Shown here piece by piece: positions 1,278 through 64,000 of a DNA stretch of 64,000 nt (position 1 is the stretch's first letter; the number at the start of each line of letters is the position of its first letter). A program made the translations under genes and the position numbers. This DNA is from a virus (taxonomy: Duplodnaviria > Heunggongvirae > Uroviricota > Caudoviricetes), in the IMG/VR virus record IMGVR_UViG_3300028048_001412, positions 109,858 to 173,857 of that record. One strand, given 5' to 3'. The notes under the pieces are model-generated. The model saw nothing but the letters and a program-made list of their open reading frames with translations. It was not told the origin of the DNA and did not search any database.

Positions 1278-2731
1278 TGAGTGAGATAAGAACAGAAAGA
1301 AATAATTCTGAATTAAAAATTCTTACTAAAATTATAAAAGATAAAGATTATAATATTCTTTCTGAAAATAATTTAACAAAGAATGATTTTAAAGATTATT
1401 TTGTTAAAGAAGGCCAGAAATTATATTTAATTTCAGATATAGTAGATTATATTGACTCTTATTATAAAACCTCTTCTCAAGTTCCAGACGAAACTACTAT
1501 TAAAACTAAATTTCCATTACTTGAATTAAATAATGATGATTATTCTAGTGAAAATAAAACATTTATAGATAATTTGAAGAAATTAAATAAAGATGATGAT
1601 TTAATAAATGCAATGACTCAAGCTAATAGAATTCATCAAACTAAAGGTGCAAGAGATGCTATTAGTTTTCTTCAAGGAGAATTGGAAAAGTTAGAAGGTA
1701 GAGGTTCTGAAGTTAAAGGATATGACTTAATTCAAAATGTAGATGACAGAATTAATGAATATGAAGAATTATTAAAAAATCCAAATAAAGCATTTGTAAC
1801 TACTGGATTAAAAGAATTAGATAATTGCATTAAAGGTTGGTTAAGAGATGAAGAATTAGTTCTTATTCAAGGTAGATCTGGTCAATCTAAAACATTCTTC
1901 TTATTAAAGTTTTTATGGGAAGCATTTGCTAGAGGAGAAAATGTTTTATTATTTGAACCAGAAATGTCTTCTAAAGTTATTGGATATAGATTAGACGTAT
2001 TAGCAGATGATAATCATGAGATATCTAATTTTTCTTTATTAAGAGGTGAAAGATTTATAGATGCTAATAAATATAAAGCTTGTTGTGCTAGATTAAAAGA
2101 ACATAAGAATCATTTCTATTATTTATGTCCTGATGATTTTGAAGATGGTTTAACTGTTTCTCAATTAAAAGCTTGGTGTAAAAAGAATAAAATTACTATA
2201 GTGGGAATAGATGGTATTGAAATTCCTGATATTATAGATGAAAGAAAAGGTTTCAAGGACGAAGAACACCTTCAGTTAACACATATAGCCGCTGATCTTC
2301 TTAGGATGTCTAAAACTTTAAAAGTTCCTGTTATTGTTACTACTCAAGCTAAAAGAACTGATAAGAAAGAAGAGTTAAGTATTAATACTATTGGCTCTTC
2401 CTACGGCATGGCGAGAAAATGCACCATCATGATTACAATTAAGAAAGAAGATAGAGAAGTAGAAATAAGAATTGAAAAGAGTAGAAATAGTACTGATAAT
2501 CAAGTTCTTAATTACAAGGTTGATCTCGATAAAGGTATATTTGAATGGGATGGAATGCCTACAATAGATGAACAAACAAATCAATCTATAAATAATAGAG
2601 AGGCTCAACCTATAACAGACGTAGATAAGGATAAGTCAGGAATAACAGAAGAGAATATAAAATTTACAGACGAGAATGGCAAACCTTACGGAGAAGATGT
2701 CTTTCTAGATGGAGGAAAAGGATTAGAATAA
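1277..2731 (+). CDS. DnaB-like replicative DNA helicase
   Basis: Walker A GRSGQSKT, and the RecA-fold C-terminal domain motif VPVIVTTQAKR (compare DnaB SQLNR). 484 aa. Confidence 0.7.
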   Translation: MSEIRTERNNSELKILTKIIKDKDYNILSENNLTKNDFKDYFVKEGQKLYLISDIVDYIDSYYKTSSQVPDETTIKTKFPLLELNNDDYSSENKTFIDNLKKLNKDDDLINAMTQANRIHQTKGARDAISFLQGELEKLEGRGSEVKGYDLIQNVDDRINEYEELLKNPNKAFVTTGLKELDNCIKGWLRDEELVLIQGRSGQSKTFFLLKFLWEAFARGENVLLFEPEMSSKVIGYRLDVLADDNHEISNFSLLRGERFIDANKYKACCARLKEHKNHFYYLCPDDFEDGLTVSQLKAWCKKNKITIVGIDGIEIPDIIDERKGFKDEEHLQLTHIAADLLRMSKTLKVPVIVTTQAKRTDKKEELSINTIGSSYGMARKCTIMITIKKEDREVEIRIEKSRNSTDNQVLNYKVDLDKGIFEWDGMPTIDEQTNQSINNREAQPITDVDKDKSGITEENIKFTDENGKPYGEDVFLDGGKGLE

Positions 2732-3804
2732 TGAAAATTACAGATAAATATATTTTAGAAGAAATGTTGGATTCTGTAAATTCTCCTAATGGAAGAAAAG
2801 CAATAGATACAATATTAAAAGGAAAACCATTACAATTATTCTATTGGAGTAGAAATGATGACGGAAAGAAAACTACTTATGAATTAATGGATGGACAACA
2901 AAGAACTCTATCTATTATGCAATTTTTAGACCATAAATTTAGTATTTTAGATGCAAATGGAAATACTCAATATGAAAATACTATATCAAAAGAAGATAAA
3001 GATAAGATTTTAGATTATGATTTATCAGTTTATATATGCGAAGGAACAGATCAAGAAAAATTAGAATGGTTTAATACAATAAATATAGCAGGATTAAAAT
3101 TAACAGATCAAGAATTAAGAAATGCAGTATATACAGGACCTTGGTTAACAGATGCGAAGTTACACTTTAGTAAACGAAATTGTGCCGGATATAAATTAAC
3201 TGAAAAATATTTTAACGGAGATCCAGCAAGACAAGAATTATTAGAGAAATTCTTAAAAGGAATAATAGAAAAAGAAGGATTAAAAACAATAGAAGATTAT
3301 ATGGCTCAACATAGAAATGATAAAGATGCAGATGAATTATGGCAATATGCAAACGATATAATCAATTGGATAAATAAAACTTTCACAAATTATAGAAAAA
3401 TAATGGATGGATTAGATTGGTGTCATTTATATAATAAATATCATCAAAATACATATAATACTCAAGATATAGAAAAAACAATAGATAAATTAATGAAAGA
3501 TGAAGATATAGAGAAAAAGAAAGGCATTTATGAATATGTATTAGATGATAAAAATCCATTCCGTGAGAAATATCTGAATTTGAGAGCCTTTCTAGATAAA
3601 GATCAACAAACAGCATATGAAAAACAAAAAGGAATATGTCCAATATGTGGAAAACATTTTAATAAAGATGAAATGGAAGCAGATCATATAATTCCTTGGA
3701 GTAAAGGAGGTTCAACAGATATAAATAACCTTCAAATGCTATGTAAATCTTGTAATAGACAAAAATCATCAGGAAATGCACCTAAAACTACTAAAAAGAA
3801 ATAA
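2731..3804 (+). CDS. DUF262 (ParB/Srx-like, DGQQR) + DUF1524/HNH nuclease fusion, GmrSD-like type IV restriction-like protein
   Basis: N-terminal DGQQRTLSI motif. C-terminal EADHIIPWSKGGSTDINNLQMLCKSCNRQKS HNH motif. Start overlaps the helicase stop (TAATG). Confidence 0.7.
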   Translation: MKITDKYILEEMLDSVNSPNGRKAIDTILKGKPLQLFYWSRNDDGKKTTYELMDGQQRTLSIMQFLDHKFSILDANGNTQYENTISKEDKDKILDYDLSVYICEGTDQEKLEWFNTINIAGLKLTDQELRNAVYTGPWLTDAKLHFSKRNCAGYKLTEKYFNGDPARQELLEKFLKGIIEKEGLKTIEDYMAQHRNDKDADELWQYANDIINWINKTFTNYRKIMDGLDWCHLYNKYHQNTYNTQDIEKTIDKLMKDEDIEKKKGIYEYVLDDKNPFREKYLNLRAFLDKDQQTAYEKQKGICPICGKHFNKDEMEADHIIPWSKGGSTDINNLQMLCKSCNRQKSSGNAPKTTKKK

Positions 3805-3844: not shown

Positions 3845-4813
3845 ATGATAAAATTCAACGTGAAAATAGAACAATTCCTAAATGATTTAAGAAGAGAAAG
3901 TGGAAAAGACATATTCAACAACGTCAAACAAAGAGGAGATGATTATCAATGTAGTTGTCCATTTCATAAAGATATAAAACCATCATTTGGAATAAATAAA
4001 GATGGAATATGGCATTGTTTTAGTTGCGGAGAAAAAGGAAATGCTATTCAATTAGTTCAGAAAATATTAGATATTGATAACTATAAAATAGCTGAAAAAT
4101 GGATAGAAGATAAATATTATAAGTTTATTCTTGAAACTCCTACTATTCCAACATTAGATTTTACATTAAAAGAAGAAAATAAAATAGAAGTTCCTAAAAA
4201 ACAATATATACCAAAAGAAGAATTAAATAAATATAAATTCTATCATCCTTATATGTATGAACGTAAATTGACTAATCAAATTATTCAAATGTTTGATATA
4301 GGTTATGATAAAGATTTTATACTAGAAAAGAAAGATCCAAATGGAAATATTAAATACGATCATTTTGGACCTGCTATTACATTTCCAGTTAAAGATATAA
4401 ATGGAAATATTTTATTTATAGCTAGAAGATGTATAAATAATAAGATATTTCATTATCCTGATGGAGCAGAAAAACCTTTATATGGTGTTTATGAATTATT
4501 TAAATATCATAAAGACGTTAAACAAATATGGGTCTGTGAATCAATTTTAGATTCGCTCTATCTATGGACTCAAAATAGAGTTGCAGTAGCATTAAACGGA
4601 TTAGGAAGTTCAGAACAATATAGAGAATTAGAATCATTAGGAATAAAAGAAATGATTTTAGCATTAGATAATGATAAAGCAGGTGAAATAGGAACCAGAG
4701 GAATAATAGATAATGTTAAAAATGTGTATTTTAGAAGAGCTATTTTACCTGAAAATCGTAAAGATATCAATGAATGTACAGAAGAAGAGATAAAAAATTT
4801 AAAAATAGTGTAA
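3845..4813 (+). CDS. DNA primase (DnaG-like: CHC2 zinc finger + Toprim)
   Basis: CSCPFHKDIKPSFGINKDGIWHCFSCGEKGNAIQLV zinc-binding motif. Toprim-like ESILDSL...ALDNDKAGE. Confidence 0.8.
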   Translation: MIKFNVKIEQFLNDLRRESGKDIFNNVKQRGDDYQCSCPFHKDIKPSFGINKDGIWHCFSCGEKGNAIQLVQKILDIDNYKIAEKWIEDKYYKFILETPTIPTLDFTLKEENKIEVPKKQYIPKEELNKYKFYHPYMYERKLTNQIIQMFDIGYDKDFILEKKDPNGNIKYDHFGPAITFPVKDINGNILFIARRCINNKIFHYPDGAEKPLYGVYELFKYHKDVKQIWVCESILDSLYLWTQNRVAVALNGLGSSEQYRELESLGIKEMILALDNDKAGEIGTRGIIDNVKNVYFRRAILPENRKDINECTEEEIKNLKIV

Positions 4814-4830
4814 ATTTTTATAAAAAATAG

Positions 4831-4842
4831 GTATAATATAAT
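4831..4842 (+). promoter_or_regulatory. GTATAATATAAT motif upstream of HD-domain gene
   Basis: Motif instance, followed by an AAGGAG RBS and the ATG at 4898. Confidence 0.4.
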
Positions 4843-4897
4843 TATATAAAAGATCTGGGTAAAAATAGCCAGGGAAACAAATAAGGAGAAAATATCA

Positions 4898-5527
4898 ATG
4901 GAAACAACTTTAACAAAAGAAATTATGAATCAAAACAAAGAGAGATTTATTTCTCTTTTACAGAAAGCCGGTGAACTAGAACCTAAAAAGAAACCAGGAA
5001 TTGATAGGTTACTTAATTGGTTAGAGGGGACCGACTTTTATTATGCTCCAGCTTCTACTAAATATCATGGCAATTATGAAGGTGGATTATGTGAGCATTC
5101 TATTAAAGTATATGATAATTTGTGTACTTTAAATACTGCTTTTAATGAAGATATGAAAGAGTATGATATAATTATATGTGCTCTTTTACATGATCTTTGT
5201 AAAATTGATTTCTATAAGAAAGTAGTTAAAGGTGCTTATAAGAAAGATGAAAATGGCGCTACTATTCAACCTAAAGTTTGGGAAGAAAAAGAAGTTTATG
5301 ATTATGGTGAGGAGAAAACTATATTAGGGCATTCTCCAAAATCAATATTTATAATTCAACATTTCTTCTTACTTTCAGATGAACAAGCAGAAGCAATATA
5401 TGCTCATATGGGTGGAATGGAATGTAGTGATCAAATGGAGAAGAATACTTATTCTAAAATATATAATAAGAATAAGTTAGCTTTCTATCTTCATTTAGCA
5501 GATTATAAACAAGCATATTATGGTTAA
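4898..5527 (+). CDS. HD-domain phosphohydrolase (YfbR-like 5'-deoxynucleotidase?)
   Basis: HD motif ICALLHDLCK with upstream His residues. 209 aa. Confidence 0.6.
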   Translation: METTLTKEIMNQNKERFISLLQKAGELEPKKKPGIDRLLNWLEGTDFYYAPASTKYHGNYEGGLCEHSIKVYDNLCTLNTAFNEDMKEYDIIICALLHDLCKIDFYKKVVKGAYKKDENGATIQPKVWEEKEVYDYGEEKTILGHSPKSIFIIQHFFLLSDEQAEAIYAHMGGMECSDQMEKNTYSKIYNKNKLAFYLHLADYKQAYYG

Positions 5528-5939
5528 AAATTAGAAGTTCAATGAACTACCATTAACCTAAAGGTATAATGGCTTCCGTTAAATAGTTCATTAGACTCAG
5601 TTTTGAGAAATCTTAACTACGTTAGAAAAATCATAACACCTTCGATTACCGGACTAGATTGAAGCTCTGTTGAATATTTTTAAGTTAGGTCGGAGTAAGA
5701 AAAGCCTTGTGAAATATTTGTAAAAAGTTTTTCTAACGTTGTCGAAGTCAAGTAGGATTTTTGATTTGGTAACAGAATCAAAATACTCATTAAGGTTTTA
5801 AGTCTTGAACCTGCTTGCAGCAAAAATCAAGACTATTTCAAAAATTATCTTTCAATTCATCTATTTGTCTAAAGACTAAATAGTTTTCTTGAAAGAAAAA
5901 ATATAAAAAATTGTATTCTAAAAAGGAGAAAAAACAGTT
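5528..5939 (+). other. 412-nt non-coding region, GC-richer than surroundings, multiple nested inverted repeats; candidate structured RNA / regulatory leader / origin
   Basis: No ORF. Hairpins include CCATTAACCTAAAGGTATAATGG, AGTCTTGA...TCAAGACT and AACGTTAGAAAA...TTTTCTAACGTT. The first 40 nt are shared with 56991-57030. Confidence 0.4.
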
Positions 5940-6521
5940 ATGAAAATAGCAATGATGAATGACAAAATGTTGCAATTAGATGATTGCAGTATTATTTTCA
6001 AGAATTTTTCAGGAAAAGCAGGAATGTACAATAAGGAAGGAGATAAGAATTTCTGTATTAAGGTAGATGAGGAATTAATATCTCAATTGGAAAACTGCAA
6101 GAACAAAGATGGTAAGGGTTGGAATGTAAAACTTTATACTCCAAAGCCAGATGATAAGTTTAAGGATAAGGATTTAACTCCATTCCACTATCTTAAGGTT
6201 AAAATTGGTAATGGTAATATTCCAGTTCAAATTGAAATTGATGGCGTTACTTCAGTTTGTCAAGATATTACTTCTTTAGATGGATTGCATATAGACCATG
6301 CAGACGTAGATTTGAGCGCATATGATGGTATCGTTAATGGAGCACCTTTTAGAGCCGCTTACTTAAAAGGAATGAAGGTATATGCAACTAGAAGTTCAAG
6401 ATTTGACACAATAGGAATGACTCCTTCAACTCCAGTATCAAATAATGCAACAGCACCAGTAACACCACAAGAAGCATTAGGTGATGACTATGAAAATTTA
6501 GACAATGTAGAGATTGTCTAG
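5940..6521 (+). CDS. Hypothetical protein; candidate single-stranded DNA-binding protein (acidic C-terminal tail)
   Basis: Strong AAAAGGAGAAAA RBS. Acidic tail EALGDDYENLDNVEIV. Followed by an intrinsic terminator. Sits in the replication module. Confidence 0.3.
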   Translation: MKIAMMNDKMLQLDDCSIIFKNFSGKAGMYNKEGDKNFCIKVDEELISQLENCKNKDGKGWNVKLYTPKPDDKFKDKDLTPFHYLKVKIGNGNIPVQIEIDGVTSVCQDITSLDGLHIDHADVDLSAYDGIVNGAPFRAAYLKGMKVYATRSSRFDTIGMTPSTPVSNNATAPVTPQEALGDDYENLDNVEIV

Positions 6522-6536
6522 TTAAAAAATAAATAA

Positions 6537-6575
6537 GAAAGAGGGATTTTAATAATCTCTCTTTCTCTTTTTATT
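6537..6575 (+). terminator. Rho-independent terminator
   Basis: GAAAGAGGGATT/AATCTCTCTTTC hairpin followed by a T-run. Confidence 0.6.
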
Positions 6576-6597
6576 TATATAAAAGGAAAATAAAATT

Positions 6598-7980
6598 TTG
6601 AAAATTAATGATGAATATATTATTAAAATATTTACTAGAAAAGATAATAGAATAGATAGCCATAAATGTAATGATAAATGGTTGAATGAAAATATAGAAA
6701 TCAAAAAATATTTAGAATCTCGATTTGATTATTTCAATGGAAAATATTCAGATGTAATAAATCTTATAAAAAATAAAGTTAAAGAATGGCCTAAATGCCC
6801 GATTTGTAAAGAATATTTAAATCATCCTGAAAATAAGCATTGTTCTTATGCTTGCGAACAAAAAGATCCTTTAGTTAATGATAAAAAGAAAAATACTTAT
6901 TTAAATAATTATGGTGTAGAACATCCTTTAAAATCAAAAGAAATAAAGAAAAAAATAAAACAGACTAATTTGCAAAAATATGGAGTAGAAAATCCTTCTC
7001 AAAACGAAGAAATTAAAGAGAAGAAAAGACAAACTAGTTTAAAAAATTATGGAGTTGATAATCCATTTAAATCTGAAGATATTAAAGAAAAAATAAAAGA
7101 AATAAATTTACAAAGATATGGATTTGAAAATGTCTTTCAAAATGAACAAATAAGACAAAAATATAAAAGCACATGTAAAGAAAAATACGGTGTAGAAAAT
7201 CCATCTCAATCTGAAAAAATAAAGAAAAAGAAAGAAAATACTAATTTAAAAAACATAGGATTCAAAAATCCATTACAATCAGAAGAAATAAAGAAAAAAG
7301 TAAAAAATACTAACTTACAAAAATACGGTGTAGAAAATCCATCTCAATTGGAAGAAATTAAGAAGAAAAAAGAAGATTCTTGTCTGAAACATTATGGAGT
7401 AAAGAGTCCATTACAATCGGAAGAAGTAAAAGAGAAAAGTAAAAAAACATGTCTTAAAAAATATGGAGTTGAAGTAGCAGCTAAATCAGAAATAGTAAAA
7501 GAGAAATTATCAAAAACTCTTTCAACTATGGAATCAAAAGAAAAACAATATAATACCAAAAAGAAAAATAATTCCTTTAATACTTCAAAACCCGAAGAAG
7601 AAATATATGAAAAATTATGTAAACAATTAGGAAAAAATAATATTTTAAGAAATTATAATAAAGATTCTAGATATCCGTTTATGGTGGATTTCTACATTAA
7701 ATCAAAAGATCTATTCATTGAATGTAATTTTAACTGGACACATGGTGAACATTGGTTTAATGAAAACTCTAAAAGCGATTTAAAAATTTCACAAAAATGG
7801 AACGAAAAATCTAAAGATTCAGATTTTTATAAAATAGCATTAAAAGTATGGACAGTAAAAGATGTAGAAAAACGAGATACTGCCAATAAAAACGGATTAA
7901 ATTACATAGTATTTTGGAAAGAATCTGATTATGAAAAGTGGATTAGTAAAGGATGTCCAAAGAAATTTCAAAATAAATAG
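6598..7980 (+). CDS. Putative homing endonuclease (family A): N-terminal Cys/His zinc finger, nine tandem ~25-aa YGVENPxQSEEIKKK repeats, C-terminal Vsr/DUF559-like nuclease; TTG start
   Basis: N-terminus KINDEYIIKIF shared with 17541 and 25338. CPICKEYLNHPENKHCSYAC zinc finger. Repeats from aa ~98-305. C-terminus DFYIKSKDLFIECNFNWTHGEHWF. Confidence 0.65.
   Translation: MKINDEYIIKIFTRKDNRIDSHKCNDKWLNENIEIKKYLESRFDYFNGKYSDVINLIKNKVKEWPKCPICKEYLNHPENKHCSYACEQKDPLVNDKKKNTYLNNYGVEHPLKSKEIKKKIKQTNLQKYGVENPSQNEEIKEKKRQTSLKNYGVDNPFKSEDIKEKIKEINLQRYGFENVFQNEQIRQKYKSTCKEKYGVENPSQSEKIKKKKENTNLKNIGFKNPLQSEEIKKKVKNTNLQKYGVENPSQLEEIKKKKEDSCLKHYGVKSPLQSEEVKEKSKKTCLKKYGVEVAAKSEIVKEKLSKTLSTMESKEKQYNTKKKNNSFNTSKPEEEIYEKLCKQLGKNNILRNYNKDSRYPFMVDFYIKSKDLFIECNFNWTHGEHWFNENSKSDLKISQKWNEKSKDSDFYKIALKVWTVKDVEKRDTANKNGLNYIVFWKESDYEKWISKGCPKKFQNK
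6889..7520 (+). repeat. Nine tandem ~75-nt coding repeats (TxLxKYGVENPxQSEEIKKKxKx)
   Basis: Periodic repeats are visible at both the protein and nucleotide level inside 6598..7980. Confidence 0.7.
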
Positions 7981-21197: not shown

Positions 21198-22085
21198 ATG
21201 ATGAATATAAATCAAGAATTATTAGAATTTATTAAAGACAATTATCAGAAGAAATTCGGAAGTTTAGATACATTTGAAGAAAATTATAAATTATATTGTT
21301 CTTTACCTTCTTTTAAAGCAAGTGAAAATTTTCATGAAGTATTTGGACAATTAAATGTAATAAATTCAGAAGATCCAAATGCTTTAGATAAAGAGAGTGA
21401 ATTTGTAAATAGAGAAGAAAAATTAGGAGATAATACTAAATATACTGATTATTTAGATTGTCAAAAAGAATTAAAACCTGAAATACATTGGATAATGAGA
21501 TCTGTCGCTCAATTCTATATGATAAAAGTATTTGATGCATTAAAAATAGATCAAAAAGATCCAAATATAGCAATAAATGCTTTAGGTAAAGGAACTCCAG
21601 GCAGAATTGTTAAAATGTGGAGTGGCGCTAATCCAGAAGATACATCAGAATTATTATCAGGAAGGTGGAATAAAGAACCTGCGCTATCAGTATTTCCAAA
21701 TGATGGTTCAACTACAGGAGGAGAAATAATCACTACTCCTATTACTAAAGAAGTAGATGTAGTTGCTGTTTGTAGTCACCATTTTCTTCCATTTTCAACA
21801 TTAGAACCAAATGCAAAAGCAATAATTACATATATACCACAAAAGCATTTAATTGGAATATCTAAATTGCAAAGATTTACTAAATGGGCTAGTGCAAGAG
21901 GATGGTTACAAGAAGATTTAACAACTTATTTAGGAACAACAATTAAAAGAATAAGTGAATCTGAAGATGTAAAAGTAGAACTGATCAATTTAGTTCATGG
22001 ATGTGAAAAGTTTAGAGGTGCTTATTCTAAAAATGGTAATTTAACAACTTATTATAAATCAGGAGTGTTCAAAGATGTCAAGTAA
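21198..22085 (+). CDS. folE: GTP cyclohydrolase I with ~100-aa N-terminal extension
   Basis: GTPGRIVKMW, VCSHHFLPF (CEHH zinc motif), TYIPQKHLIGISKLQRF, HGCEKFRG. Confidence 0.85.
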   Translation: MMNINQELLEFIKDNYQKKFGSLDTFEENYKLYCSLPSFKASENFHEVFGQLNVINSEDPNALDKESEFVNREEKLGDNTKYTDYLDCQKELKPEIHWIMRSVAQFYMIKVFDALKIDQKDPNIAINALGKGTPGRIVKMWSGANPEDTSELLSGRWNKEPALSVFPNDGSTTGGEIITTPITKEVDVVAVCSHHFLPFSTLEPNAKAIITYIPQKHLIGISKLQRFTKWASARGWLQEDLTTYLGTTIKRISESEDVKVELINLVHGCEKFRGAYSKNGNLTTYYKSGVFKDVK

Positions 22086-23719: not shown

Positions 23720-24073
23720 ATGACAATACAAGAATATCAAAAGTATGTAAAAGAAGGTGCTAGTAAAGATTATACTAAAGAATTAGCCATAATTGGAGTT
23801 ATGGGAGAATTAGGTGAGCTTTCAGATGTAGTGAAAAAAGAGGCAATTTTTAAGGATATGTCTAAATTTATAGAAAAATATGGCATGTCAGTAGAAGACA
23901 AAATGACTTCAGAGATAGGTGACATTATGTGGCAAGTATTTAATTTAGCCAATATGTATAATATAGATATGGAAAAAATATTAGAACATAATGTAGAAAA
24001 ATTAAATAAAAGACATGGTGGAGCAGGTAAAACAGCAATTGATGGTGGAATAAGATTAAATCCAAACGAATAA
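23720..24073 (+). CDS. MazG-like nucleoside triphosphate pyrophosphohydrolase
   Basis: ELGELSDVVKKE ... EIGDIMWQVFNLANMYNID. Confidence 0.6.
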   Translation: MTIQEYQKYVKEGASKDYTKELAIIGVMGELGELSDVVKKEAIFKDMSKFIEKYGMSVEDKMTSEIGDIMWQVFNLANMYNIDMEKILEHNVEKLNKRHGGAGKTAIDGGIRLNPNE

Positions 24074-25337: not shown

Positions 25338-26462
25338 TTGAAAATTAATGATAAATACATCTTGAAAATTTTTATTGGAGAGAATCAAAGAGTTAATGGT
25401 TGGAGATGTTCTTATAATTGGATAAATGAAAATCCAGAAATCAAAGAATATCTAGAGACTAGATTTAATTATTTCAATGGAAAATACGGAGATGTAGTTA
25501 GATTAATAAGAGATGGATTTGATGAATGGCCTAAATGTAAAACATGTAATGAATTTTTAAAAGAACCATTTACTCAAGATAAACAACCTTCATATCATAT
25601 TTATTGCAGCAATAAATGTAAGAATATAAATGAAGAAAAGAAACAGAAATCTATAAATACTTGTTTGGAAAAATACGGAACTCCAGTTTCTTCTCAATCC
25701 GAAATAGTTAAAGAAAAAGAGAGAAATACTATAAATTCTAGAACTGAAGAAGAGAAAAATAAAATAACTTCTAGAGCTAGAAAAACTTATATTAAAAAAT
25801 ATGGAGTAAATTGGATTTCAAAATCAAAGGAATTTAAAGATAAATTCAAAGAGACTTGGGATAATAAATCAGAAGAAGAATTACAAGACATAAAAAATAA
25901 AAAAGAAAATACTTGCTTAGAAAAATACGGCGTGAAATATTATTTTGAAACAGAAGAATTTCAAGAAAAATCAAAACAAACTATTCTAGATAAATACGGA
26001 GTAGAGTACACGCATCAATGCAAAGAAATATTAGATAAAGTTAATGAAACTAAACATAAAAATGGAACATTTAATACATCGAGGCCTGAAGAAGAATTTT
26101 ATAAATATCTTTTAAATAATTTTTCGGAAAATGATGTAAAAAGACAATATTATAAAGATTCTAGATATCCATTCAGATGTGATTTCTATATTAAATCTTT
26201 GGATTTATTTATAGAGTTAAATCTTTCTTGGGTTCATGGTGGACATTGGTTTAATAAAAATTCAAAAGAAGATTTAAAAATATTAGATAAATGGAAAAAT
26301 AAAAATACAGATTATTATAATGCGGCTATAAATACATGGACGAAGAGAGATTTATTAAAAAAGAAAACAGCAATAAAAAATAAGATTAATTATCTTGTTT
26401 TCTGGACTGAAAAAGAAATAAATAATTTAATAAAAGGAGAAAATAAATTATGTATAGTTTAA
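25338..26462 (+). CDS. Putative homing endonuclease (family A, ~4 degenerate repeats); TTG start; inserted between queC and queD
   Basis: N-terminus KINDKYILKIF. CKTCNEFL zinc finger. C-terminus RYPFRCDFYIKSLDLFIELNLSWVHGGHWF. Confidence 0.6.
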   Translation: MKINDKYILKIFIGENQRVNGWRCSYNWINENPEIKEYLETRFNYFNGKYGDVVRLIRDGFDEWPKCKTCNEFLKEPFTQDKQPSYHIYCSNKCKNINEEKKQKSINTCLEKYGTPVSSQSEIVKEKERNTINSRTEEEKNKITSRARKTYIKKYGVNWISKSKEFKDKFKETWDNKSEEELQDIKNKKENTCLEKYGVKYYFETEEFQEKSKQTILDKYGVEYTHQCKEILDKVNETKHKNGTFNTSRPEEEFYKYLLNNFSENDVKRQYYKDSRYPFRCDFYIKSLDLFIELNLSWVHGGHWFNKNSKEDLKILDKWKNKNTDYYNAAINTWTKRDLLKKKTAIKNKINYLVFWTEKEINNLIKGENKLCIV

Positions 26463-26878
26463 GAATTAAATTCGAAATTGCCTACGCTCATAGATTAATG
26501 ACTTCCTATTCCGCCAGTTGCAGGGGACTCCACGGACATAACGGAGTGTGTGAAATATTAATAGGAAATGATAAATTAAATGAAGATATGATGGTGGTAG
26601 ATTTCAAAAAAATTAAAGAAATTGTGAAAGAAACTTTAGAAGAAAAATATGATCATTCAACTATTCTTTATAAAGATGATCCATTAGCAGAAGCAGTAAA
26701 ACCTTTCTGTAATCCAGCTAAATTTCATTTATTTGAAAAGAATCCAACAGCTGAATATATGGCTGAAAGATTTACAAATGAATTACAAGAAATATTAGAT
26801 AAAGAGTTACCGGGAACTAAAGTATTATCATTTAGTTTTGAAGAAACATCAAATAATAAAGCAATATTTGAAAGTTAA
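26450..26878 (+). CDS. queD: 6-carboxy-5,6,7,8-tetrahydropterin synthase
   Basis: FEIAYAHRL and CRGLHGHN motifs. Confidence 0.8.
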   Translation: MYSLRIKFEIAYAHRLMTSYSASCRGLHGHNGVCEILIGNDKLNEDMMVVDFKKIKEIVKETLEEKYDHSTILYKDDPLAEAVKPFCNPAKFHLFEKNPTAEYMAERFTNELQEILDKELPGTKVLSFSFEETSNNKAIFES

Positions 26879-41176: not shown

Positions 41177-42097
41177 ATGAAAATTTATGCACACATAGTA
41201 AAAAACATGACTTTAAATTCTATTACTTATGATGATTTCGTAGAATTATTCAAAGATAATAAACTTGGTCAAAGAACTTGGATGCATTGCAAAGATAAAA
41301 TGGCAAAACAACCTACTAAATATGGAAAAGGAAGATATGTTCAATATAAAGCATTAGGAAATAATTTTATATTTAGTTCAGGATTAACTAAAGAAGAATT
41401 ATTAAAAATAGCAAATTGTGAGACTAAACAAGTTCCTAAAAATATAGAGTCAATAACTACTCCTTATAAAACAGATGATGAAATATATAGAGAAGATTTA
41501 CATATATTTATAAAAGAAAAATATCCAGTAGATTATATACTTAAAGGCAAAGTTGGAGATTATATTATAAAATATGCAAATGTTAAGAAAAAACAAATAC
41601 TATTAGATGGAGATACTATTAAAATTACTTCTAATAATTTAAGATTATTTAAAACTAAAGGATATAAATGTTGTAAGTGCGGAGTAGAAGGAAAATGGTT
41701 TTATAAAATTAGAAGTGATGTAAATGACGGATATCATTTAGAATTATTTGGAGAAAAAGATGGTAAATTAGTAGTAATGACTAAAGATCATATTCTTCCT
41801 CTTTCAAAAGGAGGAGCGGATCATGTGGCGAATCTTCAAACAATGTGCAGTAAATGTAATCAAGAAAAAAGTAATGATGTTAATTTAAAAGATAAAGCAA
41901 ATGGAATATCAAAACAAGAATTATGTTTAGCAAAAATGCAAGCCGTTACTAAATTATGTCAAAAAGAATATAATTCAAAAATGGATAAACAAGAACTTTG
42001 CAGAAAAATATTTGAAATTATAAACGGTAGAGATGAAAAAAATCTCGATAAAAGTAAAGGTTTATTAAGAAAATTAGGTAGATTAATAGGAGTGTAA
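41177..42097 (+). CDS. HNH homing endonuclease
   Basis: DHILPLSKGGADHVANLQTMCSKCNQEKSN. Confidence 0.7.
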   Translation: MKIYAHIVKNMTLNSITYDDFVELFKDNKLGQRTWMHCKDKMAKQPTKYGKGRYVQYKALGNNFIFSSGLTKEELLKIANCETKQVPKNIESITTPYKTDDEIYREDLHIFIKEKYPVDYILKGKVGDYIIKYANVKKKQILLDGDTIKITSNNLRLFKTKGYKCCKCGVEGKWFYKIRSDVNDGYHLELFGEKDGKLVVMTKDHILPLSKGGADHVANLQTMCSKCNQEKSNDVNLKDKANGISKQELCLAKMQAVTKLCQKEYNSKMDKQELCRKIFEIINGRDEKNLDKSKGLLRKLGRLIGV

Positions 42098-46387: not shown

Positions 46388-46472
46388 GTTCCTATGGGAG
46401 AGTGGTTGAATCCATATGATTGGAAATCATAAGATCAGAAATGGTCCACAGGTTCGAATCCTGTTAGGAACG
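46388..46472 (+). tRNA. tRNA-Ser (anticodon GGA), class II with long variable arm
   Basis: Acceptor GTTCCTA/TAGGAAC. D-stem GGA/TCC with AGTGGTTGAA loop. Anticodon stem TATGA/TCATA with loop TTGGAAA. T-arm ACAGG-TTCGAAT-CCTGT. Confidence 0.6.
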
Positions 46473-46556
46473 TTAGCTTTATACGTAATTTGTTATAAAG
46501 TGATATTCAGATCTCTGTATTATTGAGACCAATAGAGCCGTAAATTAGGCTCTATA

Positions 46557-46628
46557 TGCGAGTATAGTATAGCGGTTATTATTTCTGGCTTCCACCCAGA
46601 GGAGAAGGGTTCAATTCCCTTTACTCGC
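46557..46628 (+). tRNA. tRNA-Gly (anticodon TCC)
   Basis: Acceptor GCGAGTA/TACTCGC. D-loop AGCGGTTA. Anticodon stem TCTGG/CCAGA with loop CTTCCAC. T-arm AAGGG-TTCAATT-CCCTT. Confidence 0.55.
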
Positions 46629-46655
46629 TTAAATAAATGAAAAGTAGGTAAACAT

Positions 46656-47699: not shown

Positions 47700-48050
47700 T
47701 TGGATAATAAAAAATCAAAATTACATGCATTTCAAAATTGGAAGAAAGGAACAATTGGTAAAGCTTGGTTATTTTATAATCAAGAATTAAAAGGTCATTT
47801 TGAAAAACGTAATGGTTTATATTCTTTTGTTCCTGATTGGAATAGTAATAAAATAGGAGAAGATGGAAGTGTATTTTTAGGATGTGTTTTAGAATATTCT
47901 CCTTGGAAAAAAGATAGAAAAAGTAAAAGATTAAATAGAATTGAACGAAAAAAGAAATTAAGAGAAAAATTAGAAGCTCAAGGTAAGAAATTTCATAGTA
48001 AACTTCAAAATAAAAAGCATAAGAAGTGTAAATGCTATGAAAAAGAGTAA
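47700..48050 (+). CDS. Hypothetical basic protein
   Basis: 116-aa ORF. Confidence 0.35.
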   Translation: MDNKKSKLHAFQNWKKGTIGKAWLFYNQELKGHFEKRNGLYSFVPDWNSNKIGEDGSVFLGCVLEYSPWKKDRKSKRLNRIERKKKLREKLEAQGKKFHSKLQNKKHKKCKCYEKE

Positions 48051-56360: not shown

Positions 56361-56990
56361 ATGAAGAAATTATTAATAGTTATTATATTAATTTTATTTA
56401 ATTGTAATTTTGTCTATTCATTAAATCCAGGATGGAATAATACAGGTGTAAATATTTATTATTCTTTAACAGGATATTGGTGTAATACATTAAAAGGATG
56501 GAATTATATAGATAATAATTGGTATTATTTTGATGAAAGTGGAAGATTACAAATAGATTTATCTTGTAATAATGAATCAAATCCTAAAGATAAAGTAATT
56601 TATTGGTCTCAAATTCTTTATAATAGCAAAAAATGTAAATATGATAATACTCCATCAGGAAGATATGAAGGGTTATCATTTGACTGTAGTTCTTTTGTAG
56701 GTAGATTATATAAAATGGCAGGAATAGATTTCTTTACTAAATATTATAGTTGTGAAAAACAAGCAAATTATTTTAAAGATGAAAATAAATTAATTGACTT
56801 GAATTTGTCAGAGCCAGGAGATTTAGTATATTTTGGAGAAAATTATGCTAATGTAACTCATTGCTCTTTAATAATAGAAAATAATCCTGATATAGGAATA
56901 ATTGTTTTATCTGCTTTTGGAAAAGAAAGAGGATTATATTTAGAAATATTAGATAGAGATGATATTTTATGTATAGCGAGACCATGTTAA
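56361..56990 (+). CDS. Secreted NlpC/P60-family peptidoglycan endopeptidase with N-terminal cell-wall-binding repeat (lysin-like)
   Basis: Signal peptide. GWNYIDNNWYYFDESGRL CW-binding repeat. Catalytic Cys motif FDCSSFVGRLYKMAGIDF. His in NVTHCSLII. Confidence 0.55.
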   Translation: MKKLLIVIILILFNCNFVYSLNPGWNNTGVNIYYSLTGYWCNTLKGWNYIDNNWYYFDESGRLQIDLSCNNESNPKDKVIYWSQILYNSKKCKYDNTPSGRYEGLSFDCSSFVGRLYKMAGIDFFTKYYSCEKQANYFKDENKLIDLNLSEPGDLVYFGENYANVTHCSLIIENNPDIGIIVLSAFGKERGLYLEILDRDDILCIARPC

Positions 56991-57071
56991 TTGAACTACC
57001 ATTAATCTAAAGCTTAATGGTTTTATAGACTCAAAATATAAAAATATTTAAGAGATTTTGGAGGTATTAAA

Positions 57072-57434
57072 TTGAAAGATAACGTAGATGAATTTTTAGT
57101 AGCGTATAAAGCATATGAAATGGTTTGTAGAGCTAAAGGAAAAGAAGTTAAAGATATTGAAGATGAATTAGGTGAAAATAATCCTAAAATGCAGAAGATC
57201 CGAATTTGTAGGCAATTGAGAAACTTCTGCGTTCACAATGAACATGATGATTTCATTCAAATTCATAAAGGAATGATTAAATTCTTAAAAGAAGAAATAA
57301 AATTAAGTAAACAAAAATCAAAGAAAACAAATGTTTCTAATAAAAATACTAAATCTTCTGTTTCTAAAAAGAAAAATGTCAAAATTAATAGTAAATCAAA
57401 TAAAAAGTCCACTATAAAAAAGAAAAGGAAGTAA
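57072..57434 (+). CDS. Hypothetical protein with Lys-rich basic tail
   Basis: 120-aa ORF, TTG start. Confidence 0.4.
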   Translation: MKDNVDEFLVAYKAYEMVCRAKGKEVKDIEDELGENNPKMQKIRICRQLRNFCVHNEHDDFIQIHKGMIKFLKEEIKLSKQKSKKTNVSNKNTKSSVSKKKNVKINSKSNKKSTIKKKRK

Positions 57435-58271
57435 TTGATGACTTTTAGTAATTGGGTTAAAAAGAATTCTAATAAATTAACAAATGTTTCTAAATTAACT
57501 CTTAATGATTGGATAAATAATAGAAATTTACCTGATTGGAAAGAGAGAAATAATATTTTATGGAATAATCATTGTTCAGATGATATAAAAGACGAGGATG
57601 GTTTTACATTTACTGGAAATAAAGCAGGGAAAAATACTAAATTTGATATAAATAATAAAATGCAATATTATAGAAGTGCTACTTGGCAAAAAGTAATGGC
57701 TAGAAAAATTAAATCCACAGGTGGTAAATGTGAAATATGCGGATCAAAAGACAATCTCACTGTTCATCACCGTGAGTATACAGCTAATTGGGGAGGGAAG
57801 GAATCGGACGATGAACTCTTGACTTGTTGCAAGCGTTGCCATATGCTGCAACACAAAGATAAACCAGAATGTGTAAAACAATATAATGAATTAATGTCTC
57901 CAATAAGAAGTATAGTTATAAATGTTAAATCTGATGGTTCAATTACTCCTCATGTATTTACTAATTGTGATGATGATATGATAAGAGCATATATGGTAGA
58001 TATGTATAAAAAAGCAAAAGTAATTAAATATATAAAAAACTGTAGATTATATAAAACCAAATTAGAAGGCGAACCTAATAAAGCAAATGATAGATGGTTT
58101 GCTATAAGTATAAATAATAAAAATGAAGTAGTAGAACTTCATCAATGTAATTCTAAAAAAGAGGCTGAAAAATATAAAAAGAAAAATTTAAAAAATTTCG
58201 TAGTATTTAAGCCTTCTAAAACCATTGATTCGGAAAAGTTAAATCAGATATATCATCCTAAAAAGAAATAA
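57435..58271 (+). CDS. HNH endonuclease
   Basis: CEICGSKDNLTVHHREY...CCKRCHMLQH. Confidence 0.65.
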   Translation: MMTFSNWVKKNSNKLTNVSKLTLNDWINNRNLPDWKERNNILWNNHCSDDIKDEDGFTFTGNKAGKNTKFDINNKMQYYRSATWQKVMARKIKSTGGKCEICGSKDNLTVHHREYTANWGGKESDDELLTCCKRCHMLQHKDKPECVKQYNELMSPIRSIVINVKSDGSITPHVFTNCDDDMIRAYMVDMYKKAKVIKYIKNCRLYKTKLEGEPNKANDRWFAISINNKNEVVELHQCNSKKEAEKYKKKNLKNFVVFKPSKTIDSEKLNQIYHPKKK

Positions 58272-58296
58272 AGGACCGCGAGGAAAACAAAAATAT

Positions 58297-58830
58297 ATGA
58301 AAAATGTATTATCATTTGAATGGTTAACGAAAAAGAATATAAGTGAAATGGATTTAATCCGTAGATTATTATTAAAAAATTATAATCTAGTAGATTTAGA
58401 ACCAGAGATTTTAGATAGTGTAATTAGCGGAGAATGCAAACAATTCTACCCTATTATAGATTATGCTATAATTAAAGTAAATAATAAAAGTGTAGGTCTT
58501 ATTGGTCAATATAATTCATTTTTATTTAAAAATGATTTATGGTTAGGATGGGCTGGAATATTACCTGAATTTCATGATAAGAAAAAATCATATATGAAAA
58601 ATGCAATGAAATTATGGGAAGCATATGTAAAAAAGAAATATCCTAATATTGATCATTTAAGAGCATATATTTCTAAAAGCAAAGAAAAAGACGATTTAAT
58701 TTATCTAAAAGATTTAGGATATAAATTAGAAAAAGGAATGTATAAACATTATCAAGATGATGATATAATAATATTAAGTAAATGTTTAAAAGGAGAATAT
58801 AGACCTTGGACTAGAAAACCCGTTTGGTAA
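58297..58830 (+). CDS. Hypothetical protein (possible acetyltransferase-like)
   Basis: 177-aa ORF. Confidence 0.4.
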   Translation: MKNVLSFEWLTKKNISEMDLIRRLLLKNYNLVDLEPEILDSVISGECKQFYPIIDYAIIKVNNKSVGLIGQYNSFLFKNDLWLGWAGILPEFHDKKKSYMKNAMKLWEAYVKKKYPNIDHLRAYISKSKEKDDLIYLKDLGYKLEKGMYKHYQDDDIIILSKCLKGEYRPWTRKPVW

Positions 58831-58939
58831 AAATTTATTAATATATTTTATTTTGATTTTTCAGTATAAATAGTATAATAATTATAATATATAATATTAA
58901 AATAATATTAAGCAAATGTTTAAAAGGAGAATATAGTGA

Positions 58940-59473
58940 ATGAATAATTCGGGAGCAATAATGGCAGGAGTGTTAATATTTGTAGTTCTTATTGTTTTAT
59001 TTACAATTGTTTTTTCTATAATGTGTTTATGGAAAATATACGAAAAAGCAGGAGAACCAGGTTGGAAATGTTTAGTTCCTATTTATAATACTTGGACTTT
59101 ATATAAGTTTATCAAAATGCCAGTAGTTGTATTTTGGATAGCTTTAGCATCTAGTATATTACAAAATATATTTAGTTCTACTATAACTGTGAATGGAGAA
59201 ATTTATTATCAAAGTATAACTAGTTTAGGACCTGTTGGAACTATTTGTGCAATAATATCATTAATAATCTATGTAATGGTTAGTTATAAATTATCATTAG
59301 CTTTTGGTAAAGGAATAGGATATACTATACTTTTAATTTTTATAATTGGTTATCCTATGTTAGCATTTGGAAGTGCTCAATATCAATATAATTCAATAAA
59401 TGATAATGATTATGGAAATTCTCATTTTAATGATAATAACGATGATGAATTTCAAATGATAGATGAAAATTAA
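58940..59473 (+). CDS. Hypothetical multi-pass membrane protein
   Basis: Four hydrophobic helices. Acidic C-terminus. Confidence 0.45.
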   Translation: MNNSGAIMAGVLIFVVLIVLFTIVFSIMCLWKIYEKAGEPGWKCLVPIYNTWTLYKFIKMPVVVFWIALASSILQNIFSSTITVNGEIYYQSITSLGPVGTICAIISLIIYVMVSYKLSLAFGKGIGYTILLIFIIGYPMLAFGSAQYQYNSINDNDYGNSHFNDNNDDEFQMIDEN

Positions 59474-59605
59474 TATCAACAACCTAGTGGTTAAATACCA
59501 CAAGGTTTGTGAAAACAAACCTTACGTTGATTAGCTTTAATAACAGTTTGTGGGAAATGTCATTCACATAAAAATCATCAAAAAGGTGGAATTTTACATA
59601 AATGG

Positions 59606-60139
59606 ATGCAAAAGAAAAAGAAAGTAAAAACATATAAAGAACCAACATTTATGAATATCTTACAAAGTAGAATTATAAAAGAATACCCAAATGCAAGAAT
59701 AACTTATGGATATGAAACAGAAATTAAAAGAATAGAATTAGGATTAGAAAAAGAACATTATAACGACGCAATAGCCATAACAAATTTAGATAATATAAAA
59801 GAAAACTCAAATGAATTTTTATTTATAAAACAGTTTAGAAAGAAAAAGAGAAGTTTACACGAAGCAACTATACGAAAAGGAAGAAAAGAACCAAATAGAT
59901 CTCAAAAACGAAATTCAAAGAATACGGTGACGAATGGAATACATTATTTAGGAGATACAGTAAAAGTAGGAAATAAAATAGGATATGTAAGTGGTTTTTC
60001 AGGAAAACAGTTATATGTAAAAGATTTTGAAGATAATTACATAACAAAAGAAGGAAAGAAATATAAACAAATTGGAGAAAAAGAATGTCTAATAGTAAAA
60101 CACAACAACAATTGGATTTACCAAGCAATTCATCCTTAG
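59606..60139 (+). CDS. Hypothetical basic protein
   Basis: 177-aa ORF. Confidence 0.4.
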   Translation: MQKKKKVKTYKEPTFMNILQSRIIKEYPNARITYGYETEIKRIELGLEKEHYNDAIAITNLDNIKENSNEFLFIKQFRKKKRSLHEATIRKGRKEPNRSQKRNSKNTVTNGIHYLGDTVKVGNKIGYVSGFSGKQLYVKDFEDNYITKEGKKYKQIGEKECLIVKHNNNWIYQAIHP

Positions 60140-60197
60140 TGCTAAAGACTCAAAGGAATTCTTGCTTGAAAAAGTTAAAAAGTGAGGTAAAAGATTA

Positions 60198-63463: not shown

Positions 63464-63539
63464 GGCGATATCGGCAAGCGGTTTAAGCCACAGGATTTTC
63501 ATTCCTGCATCTTCGTGGGTTCGAATCCCACTATCGTCA
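63464..63539 (+). tRNA. tRNA, probably Glu (anticodon TTC); noncanonical D-arm
   Basis: Acceptor GGCGATA/TATCGTC (one G.U). Anticodon stem CAGGA/TCCTG with loop TTTTCAT. T-arm GTGGG-TTCGAAT-CCCAC. Confidence 0.4.
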
Positions 63540-63701
63540 TTCGTAAAGAGACAGAAACTTTACGAGACTTTCATAGAAGTCCTCCTATAAAATAAATCCT
63601 AGGTCTTATTAAGTAAAATTAAGTAAGATATATTATTCAGAATATAAGAGGTTCAAATCTCTCCTAGGAATTCAAATCGTTCTATGACAATTGAATATTA
63701 A

Positions 63702-63781
63702 GCTCCATTGGTGGAATTGGTAGACACGCGAGTCTTAGGAACTCGTTCGAAAGAGTGTAAGTTCGAGTCTTACATGGAGTA
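63702..63781 (+). tRNA. tRNA-Leu (anticodon TAG), class II
   Basis: Acceptor GCTCCAT/ATGGAGT (G1.U72). D-arm GTG-GAATTGGTAGA-CAC. Anticodon stem CGAGT/ACTCG with loop CTTAGGA. Long variable arm. T-arm GTAAG-TTCGAGT-CTTAC. Confidence 0.5.
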
Positions 63782-64000
63782 CGCATATCTTTTTACCACG
63801 TTCGATTCGTTGAGAGAATGTTGAAATGATCTGTAATGGTTTACTAAAAAGATCAAGATTAGAGCTTATATTTATAACATTCGTAAATATAAGGTCGAGA
63901 ATCATTAAAAATAAGGGGCTAGGGACTGCAATGGGGTGGTCGCTTCTCTTGCAAAGAAGAAATCAGTCGGAATCATTCTCCGATAGCTCCACTATAATAA

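Follow-up and report, generated by a model that had tools for sequence, protein, structure and literature searches.

An orphan HEARO RNA among phage replication genes, very probably carried by an IscB-type element that lacks iscB

The HEARO RNA between the HD-domain and SSB genes

We analysed a stretch of 64,000 nucleotides (nt) of viral DNA (hereafter the window; positions 109,858 to 173,857 of the IMG/VR record IMGVR_UViG_3300028048_001412, Caudoviricetes), and in particular the intergenic region at 5528-5939. This region contains a HEARO RNA, the type of omega RNA that serves IscB, an RNA-guided nuclease, as part of an element that extends from 5542 to ~5907. It is preceded by a gene for an HD-domain protein (open reading frame (ORF) 4898-5527, + strand), assigned by a Pfam scan, and followed by a gene for a single-stranded-DNA-binding protein (SSB; ORF 5940-6521, + strand). 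A preliminary description, made from the sequence alone, had labelled the latter a candidate SSB gene, and its match to PF24083 Phage_ssDNA_bind (E 5e-18) bears this out. No + strand ORF of 40 amino acids (aa) or more is found in 5528-5939, and the region is the longest of the gaps between + strand genes from position 1 to ~15.6 kb, and of those in the helicase-primase-gyrase cluster, both in agreement with that description.

The region had further been described as highly structured and richer in GC than its surroundings. Its minimum free energy is -87.1 kcal/mol, against -71.5 +/- 4.4 kcal/mol for shuffled sequences (z = -3.5), and none of 100 shuffles folds as stably as the native sequence, so that the first statement stands. 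The second one is weak. The GC content of 5528-5939 is 0.286 for a window mean of 0.256 (standard deviation 0.031), a value that 15% of 412-nt windows equal or exceed; it reaches 0.33 only in the core at 5542-5757 and is 0.19 in the tail at 5837-5939. The long-range complementarity pointed out in the same description is also present (5616-5630 pairs with 5728-5742 over 15 nt, 93%), and corresponds to the long closing stem of the HEARO model.

The Rfam scan that had been proposed was run with Rfam 15 on the whole window, and gave a single match apart from tRNAs: HEARO (RF02033), at 5542-5757 on the + strand. The match is full length (model positions 1-211 of 211) and scores 96.4 bits, above the curated gathering score of 83, with an E value of 1.7e-18. 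HEARO is an RNA located upstream of IscB genes in IS200/IS605-type elements, and is now called omega RNA, the scaffold and guide RNA of IscB (Meers et al., bioRxiv 10.1101/2023.03.14.532601; PMC13565253). In this scaffold core, the P1 stem (5542-5549 with 5584-5591) encloses a subterminal hairpin at 5550-5572 (CCATTAA-CCTAAAGGT-ATAATGG), as given by both the HEARO model and the alignment. At 5542-5591 (+ strand), both form the transposon end next to the omega RNA, named RE by Meers et al. Further downstream, the closing stem, which the model extends to 5616-5631 with 5727-5742, surrounds two internal hairpins, and several of its pairs covary. RF02033 misses structural elements located downstream of the model (Meers et al., bioRxiv 10.1101/2023.03.14.532601), and here homology to IscB-linked relatives, up to the ribosome-binding site (RBS) of their iscB, delimits a 3' extension of the omega RNA at 5758-5836 (+ strand). 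This extension comprises a hairpin at 5759-5783, with a conserved GGTAACAG loop and a covarying stem, and a last hairpin at 5801-5834, in which AGTCTTGA and TCAAGACT pair around CTGCTTGCAG (5811-5820).

The guide of IscB is ~16 nt long. In the window, the putative guide AAAAATTAGAAGTTCA occupies 5526-5541 on the + strand, outside the element and overlapping the stop codon of the HD gene, in keeping with the known position of IscB guides directly 5' of the scaffold and beyond the transposon boundary (Meers et al., bioRxiv 10.1101/2023.03.14.532601). With at most one mismatch, its sole other match in the window is AAAAATTAGAAGCTCA at 47965-47980, inside ORF 47700-48050 (chance expectation 0.05 per window). 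This candidate second target was set aside as probably due to chance: it lies in lysine-rich coding sequence, the guide is mismatched close to its 3' end, and 47965-47980 is not followed by a TATAAA-like motif.

Relatives of the RNA were collected in two ways. Searching IMG/VR with a generic HEARO core pattern returned 109 sites, most of them with an ORF of 400-450 aa ~100-170 nt downstream. The 19-nt motif GGCTTCCNTTAAATAGTTCA, common to the window and its nearest relatives, led to 7 viral, 38 metagenomic and 6 genome loci, several of which are chance matches with no HEARO around them. The best true relatives are 71-75% identical to the window at the nucleotide level over 180-260 nt, and most are followed by an ORF of 408-427 aa. 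The downstream ORFs that were tested encode IscB: their homologues contain the RRXRR and HNH Pfam domains and are named 'RNA-guided endonuclease IscB' at NCBI. A profile built from 11 IscBs had at least 8000 matches in a database of 5.8 billion proteins, those listed being all of the common subfamily.

The covariation check suggested in the preliminary description was then possible on an alignment of the window RNA with 13 related HEAROs, 10 of which are followed by an iscB of 418-427 aa. RNAalifold predicts 54 pairs for this 14-sequence subfamily alignment, and compensatory double changes are seen at 30 of them. The window copy keeps 51 of the 54 consensus pairs (49-54 in the IscB-linked copies), matches 96 of the 103 columns at which the 13 relatives do not vary, and its bit score falls inside the range of the IscB-linked members of the subfamily (94.6-123.8 bits). 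Furthermore, four of its seven deviations make up two compensated pairs, changed from G-C to A-U at 5542/5591 and 5635/5671; the former is the first pair of P1, and is G-C in all 13 relatives. Homology to the IscB-linked relatives spans 5543 to ~5836, the point at which the RBS of their iscB is found.

The distal end, the missing iscB and the insertion site

In the relatives, the stop codon of iscB is directly followed by a module. It has a short outer stem, the conserved motif ATTCAT and an inner hairpin whose loop reads CTAAAG(A/G), after which come TTTTC, the second (3') strand of the outer stem and a tail ending in T(T/A)TATAAA. Two pairs of loci carry the same element in different flanks (L117 and L133; L123 and L126), and in both of them divergence starts right after this tail. 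The same module is found in the window at 5849-5907 (+ strand), starting ~15 nt after the last hairpin of the omega RNA. Its outer stem is formed by CTTTCAA (5849-5855) and TTGAAAG (5889-5895), with ATTCAT at 5855-5860, an inner hairpin at 5861-5883 with CTAAAGAC in its loop, a run of T, and ATATAAA as the terminal sequence (5901-5907); the outer boundary is uncertain by a few nucleotides. When 15 sequences of the module are aligned, covariation is seen at all 9 of its predicted pairs, and its pattern occurs in the window only at 5855 and 60128, for 0.05 occurrences expected by chance. The proximal (5550-5572) and distal (5861-5883) subterminal hairpins have related CTAAAG loops, as expected of subterminal hairpins recognized by a Y1 transposase of the IS200/IS605/ISC type. 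Indeed, ISC elements possess subterminal hairpins, lack terminal inverted repeats and are mobilized in trans by Y1 transposases (PMC4810608). The element of the window agrees with this description in its imperfect hairpins near both ends and its want of terminal inverted repeats.

No nuclease gene lies between both ends: 5542-5907 contains neither a + strand ORF of at least 40 aa nor an IscB-like frame detectable in an IscB profile search. The HEARO of the window is not followed by a co-oriented iscB either, the downstream gene being the Phage_ssDNA_bind one. The absence of an adjacent iscB makes the window copy an orphan, which is a known state in this family and leaves its membership unaffected. 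The same iscB-less arrangement of omega RNA, last hairpin and distal ATTCAT-hairpin module is found independently at L128:3678-3977 and L119:12280-12579, which are located on fermentation and other metagenome contigs. Since the omega RNA is directly followed by the module that normally comes after iscB, the segment from 5542 to ~5907 has the structure of an IscB-type element from which iscB has been cleanly removed. Hence, these ~366 nt very probably derive from an IscB-type IS200/IS605 (ISC) element by internal deletion and encode no protein, similar to the elements known as PATEs. Among the possibilities raised in the preliminary description, a small non-coding RNA or the remnant of a mobile miniature element is therefore the correct one: the region holds a HEARO omega RNA, and the IS200/IS605-type element around it is devoid of iscB but has kept the modules of its two ends.

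A related phage contig, L002 (and also L003), carries the same two genes without the element. It encodes homologues of the HD and SSB proteins (58% and 56% aa identity, respectively) separated by a spacer of 64 nt, in which nothing resembling HEARO is found. The difference in spacer length with the window, 348 nt, fits an element of ~366 nt.

This comparison also bears on the two functions that had been proposed for the region. The first, an autoregulatory translational operator in the leader of the SSB gene, similar to that of T4 gene 32, is very unlikely. Its appeal is the position of the RNA directly upstream of a gene for a ssDNA-binding protein, and an unrelated contig (L154) also carries an orphan HEARO in front of an ORF that looks SSB-like by eye. 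Yet the SSB homologue of L002 does with a 64-nt spacer and no such RNA, and the structured element of the window ends at ~5895-5907, at least 17 nt before the RBS (AGGAG, 5924-5928). The latter belongs to the native leader of the SSB gene (5908-5939, + strand), an unstructured A-rich sequence outside the element. Moreover, the RNA family has a different, established role, and at all other loci HEARO precedes unrelated genes, usually iscB. In L154 (3822-4100; Ga0247611_10004272) the HEARO scores 125.9 bits, no iscB follows, and the next ORF, of 116 aa, is OB-fold/SSB-like by eye only; the order of both features parallels that of the window.

The second function, a replication origin beside the helicase and primase genes, has in its favour only the location in the replication cluster and the presence of hairpins, and we find it scarcely credible. 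No iteron-like direct repeats were found and the repeat families do not exceed two-copy chance matches, the cumulative GC skew rises steadily across the region without a turn, and the block is missing from the syntenic site of L002. Every hairpin of the region belongs either to the HEARO model or to the transposon-end module.

Several observations weigh against the derivation of the block from an inserted IscB-type element that has since become a relic. L002 is too distant (56-58% aa identity) for its spacer to be aligned with that of the window at the nucleotide level, so we infer the exact insertion boundaries and the target-adjacent motif instead of reading them from an empty site, and it is formally possible that the block was lost in L002 and not gained in the window. 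The nearest sampled HEAROs are only ~73-75% identical, and hence no parent element can be pointed to. In addition, the window RNA is no more decayed than the IscB-linked copies, which fits continued selection as well as it does a recent loss of iscB. Finally, the sequence inspected amounts to the 64 kb of the window and ~10 kb beyond, from a genome of ~245-284 kb; an intact IscB or TnpA could lie elsewhere in the phage or in the host, which bears on the choice between a relic and an element active in trans.

Other remnants in the window and the search for an effector

The first segment of the element recurs in the window. The 21-nt sequence TGAACTACCATTAAYCTAAAG is found only at 5543-5563 and 56992-57012 within the 64 kb, with an expectation of 0.01 and no case of two matches among 100 shuffles. 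As previously noted, the second occurrence is located directly after the stop codon of ORF 56361-56990, which gives an NLPC_P60 match. The recurrence had been described as a shared module of 40 nt; what both copies share is ~30 nt, made up of the P1 5' strand plus the hairpin and differing at three points (two substitutions and a gap of 1 nt), and not a 40-nt duplicate. The second copy then lacks the following ~19 nt, including the 3' strand of P1, before TAGACTCA, which is common to both. This decayed copy of 45-50 nt (56992-57042, + strand) is thus composed of the P1 5' strand, a hairpin at 56998-57021, TTTTA, TAGACTCA at 57026-57033 and ATATAAA at 57036-57042, the remainder of the omega RNA being absent. 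No second HEARO, here or elsewhere, was detected in a sensitive Rfam scan of the whole window.

The position of both copies directly after stop codons leaves room for another interpretation, namely that the remnants have been co-opted for transcript punctuation, their stable hairpins acting as a terminator, attenuator or RNase processing site, located between HD and SSB in one case and behind NlpC/P60 in the other. The second copy is a perfect 8-bp hairpin followed by TTTTAT, which resembles a terminator, and the distal module of the first element is likewise a hairpin followed by TTTTCT. Nevertheless, a scan of 5528-5939 with a consensus terminator model returned no terminator (and a simple promoter scan no excess of promoters), the stems are AT-rich, and the biology of IscB elements already explains a placement behind co-oriented genes. 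We therefore regard punctuation as improbable.

A search for IscB in the six frames of the window, using the profile of 11 IscBs, gave one true match, at 59531-60139 (+ strand; E 6e-15). It is a 3' fragment of iscB that covers profile positions 232-316 (the end of HNH and RuvC-III), followed by the C-terminal domain. Its frame opens right after a stop codon, and the region was listed as a 177-aa ORF (59606-60139). By tblastn the fragment is 38-40% identical to most IscB queries (27-40% overall), and its closest database homologues are ~60% identical, contain HNH and RRXRR, and are in some cases named 'RNA-guided endonuclease IscB'. It is followed by its own distal module at 60124-60168 (+ strand), of the form AGCAATTCAT-CCTTAGTGCTAAAGACTCAAAGG-AATTCTTGCTTG, which overlaps the stop codon of the fragment.

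The second copy and the iscB fragment are further-decayed relics of the same kind of element. Two origins can be considered for the second copy: an element that underwent a drastic deletion but kept its two termini, or the left part of one whose right end is the iscB fragment, 2.5 kb downstream. That the two represent the ends of one disrupted element is possible but weakened, since the nearest IscBs of the fragment are associated with a different HEARO subtype and the second copy has its own terminal ATATAAA. One of these nearest homologues, in the closest full locus (L166), has a strong upstream HEARO of 137.7 bits that differs in subtype from that of the window. Between relic and fragment, at 57072-59473, lie four unrelated ORFs, for a 120-aa lysine-rich protein, a 278-aa protein with an HNH motif (57435-58271), a 177-aa protein, and a 177-aa DUF5684 membrane protein. 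The three 177-aa ORFs of this part of the window (starting at 58297, 58940 and 59606) were considered as paralogues and rejected, as they do not align with each other.

Many database homologues of the fragment are short (160-340 aa). A compact IscB subfamily of ~340 aa was considered as its source and rejected: the 340-aa call in L166 is due to a stop codon that interrupts an iscB of normal length, in frame and close to the N-terminus (L166:3760-4030). Frequent pseudogenization is one possible reason for the short homologues, many of which are also located on very short contigs.

No complete effector was identified. Pfam scans of the window ORFs of at least 108 aa, excepting a few mid-sized ones, revealed no protein with RRXRR and HNH and no Y1 transposase. 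The HNH proteins that they did reveal are encoded at 2731-3804 (together with GmrSD_N), 41177-42097 and 57435-58271. The first of them, a 357-aa ORF with GmrSD_N and a C-terminal HNH, sits between the DnaB-like helicase and primase genes, and could be a free-standing nuclease or homing-type gene. The IscB profile search found no IscB in the ~10 kb beyond the window.

The source of the window looks like a very large uncultivated phage. Its SSB protein is recorded on a contig of 284,018 bp and a protein from the right end of the window on one of 245,530 bp, and the same intergenic region is also present, with identical sequence, on a 50.5-kb Logan contig. Comparison of 4800-6600 with 50,697 phage records by blastn gave no matches, and neither did queries of IMG/VR with the SSB protein and the exact 20-nt module. 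Among isolate phages, the best matches of the gyrase A of the window are from Bacillus phages, at 33% identity. Among the 120 best matches to the iscB fragment, no protein of the 284,018-bp contig is listed other than the fragment itself, which makes a close intact paralogue unlikely on that genome; a distant one could still be encoded there.

Other features of the window and of the related loci can be summarized briefly. Homologues of GTP cyclohydrolase I (21198-22085) and of 6-pyruvoyl-tetrahydropterin synthase (QueD-like; 26450-26878) are encoded near MazG (23720-24073) and an ORF resembling deoxynucleoside kinases, a set that suggests a module for 7-deazaguanine-type DNA modification or for nucleotide metabolism. 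The ORFs at 6598-7980 and 25338-26462 are DUF7487 paralogues with two matched stretches each, and related repeats are found in L107 and L030. Genes for four phage tRNAs (Ser-GGA, Gly-TCC, Glu-TTC and Leu-TAG) are located at 46388-46629 and 63464-63782, and contig L163 shows ~3.3 kb with no called genes just past the end of the window. Among the related loci, L027 carries two twister-sister ribozymes (3443-3522 and 5658-5737), L138 a group I intron (5378-5658) and L167 a RAGATH-30 RNA (4866-4924).

Proposed mechanism, current state and known systems

Production of an omega RNA depends on transcription of the upstream gene, and the IscB-omega RNA complex cuts the site that is free of the element, whose repair restores the element (Meers et al., bioRxiv 10.1101/2023.03.14.532601). 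The requirement for upstream transcription accounts for the known bias of these elements to insert behind co-oriented genes. The neighbouring genes in the window are all on the + strand, and the element is co-oriented with them, directly behind the stop codon of the HD gene; from this orientation and position, the replication genes should give rise to an omega RNA through read-through transcription. Continued past the HD gene, such transcription would produce an RNA with a scaffold of ~215-295 nt and a guide at ~5526-5541 (AAAAATTAGAAGTTCA). An IscB supplied in trans could load this orphan RNA, which would otherwise be inert. Once loaded, IscB would cut genomes with an uninterrupted HD-SSB junction, and repair would copy the element back in, while a Y1 TnpA, also supplied in trans, could move the element. 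The element itself probably does nothing unless another one supplies the nuclease.

The current state of the element is most likely that of a non-autonomous remnant, inert or only occasionally active. As a rough apportionment, we favour a plain relic with some confidence, because decay is evident in the two other fragments of the window and no effector could be detected; an RNA still usable in trans is a serious minority option, given that it shows no extra decay; and recruitment to some other end, for instance transcript processing or termination, keeps a slight share.

The minority option has a stronger form, which we consider possible, if unlikely: the orphan omega RNA would be a working, selected guide, acting in trans with an IscB encoded in the unseen part of the phage, in the host or in a co-infecting phage. 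In equally tentative terms, cutting of insertion-free HD-SSB junctions could drive homing, or exclude competitors, with no nuclease gene of its own. The scaffold is indeed as intact as in the IscB-linked copies (51 of 54 pairs, two compensated pairs specific to its lineage and a bit score in their range), and it is co-oriented and directly behind the upstream gene, as omega-RNA biogenesis requires. Its GC content has fallen towards that of the phage (0.33 in the core, the relatives being GC-richer by eye) with pairing kept, which suggests a long residence under structural constraint, and standalone omega RNAs that work with IscB are documented (PMC9581776). Against this, the window and the 10 kb beyond hold no intact IscB, the 284,018-bp contig yields only the fragment among the top 120 fragment homologues, and nothing that matches the guide occurs in the sole known relative whose site lacks the element. 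Furthermore, the structural constraint could predate the loss of iscB, and both other relics of the window show clear decay. The more specific proposal that the phage keeps a guide-only OMEGA element under selection, and that a borrowed IscB cuts the uninterrupted HD-SSB junction of rivals, is in our opinion rather improbable. Were it true, it would represent a protein-free device for homing or competitor exclusion, with an RNA guide decoupled from its effector; more generally, an orphan RNA active in trans would be a natural viral example of a guide separated from its nuclease.

Whatever its present activity, the block at 5528-5939 is a mobile-element guide RNA, and most likely neither a regulator of SSB nor an origin; as such it joins the standalone omega RNAs already known. 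Structured gaps of this kind are common in the genomes of large uncultivated phages, and the signature described here for iscB-less relics, that is, a HEARO scaffold plus a distal end of the form ATTCAT-hairpin(CTAAAG loop)-TTTTC...TATAAA, should help in annotating them. Our results also show that IscB elements invaded this phage lineage repeatedly and have decayed to differing degrees within one genome, an observation that bears on the turnover of OMEGA systems in viruses.

Comparison with known systems places the element as follows. With the operator of T4 gene 32 it has in common a structured RNA upstream of a phage gene for a ssDNA-binding protein. There is no relationship in sequence or structure, the RNA of the window being a transposon guide RNA that does not overlap the RBS and is missing in a relative. 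With respect to HEARO at large (RF02033), the window copy has retained P1 with the subterminal hairpin as well as the long closing stem with its internal hairpins, and it likewise marks one end of an element of the IS200/IS605 type, in the orientation of the upstream gene. It differs by having the distal transposon end in place of the iscB ORF and by its 33% GC, and it lacks the second small hairpin (model positions ~33-44), as does the whole GGCTTCC-TTAAATAGTTCA subfamily. Its closest counterparts in large phages are IscB elements such as those on IMG/VR contigs of 127-141 kb (L027, L042 and L060), which belong to the same HEARO subfamily (71% identity) and have the same distal module. Unlike in the window, the omega RNA and the distal end are separated there by the gene for an intact IscB of 420-427 aa.

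Standalone omega RNAs can function with IscB in trans, according to the account given in PMC9581776 of Altae-Tran et al. 2021, and the window shares with them a scaffold that has no effector gene next to it. In the published case, as reported in that account, the same genome contains IscB genes, whereas the sequence inspected here contains no intact one. Finally, PATEs are protein-less derivatives of IS200/IS605 elements that often encode omega RNAs (Meers et al., bioRxiv 10.1101/2023.03.14.532601). The element of the window differs from this multi-copy family in consisting of one complete copy plus fragments, in residing in a phage genome and in its mobility, which is only presumed. It shares with PATEs both ends bearing a subterminal hairpin, a complete absence of coding capacity, and a dependence on TnpA and a nuclease provided in trans.

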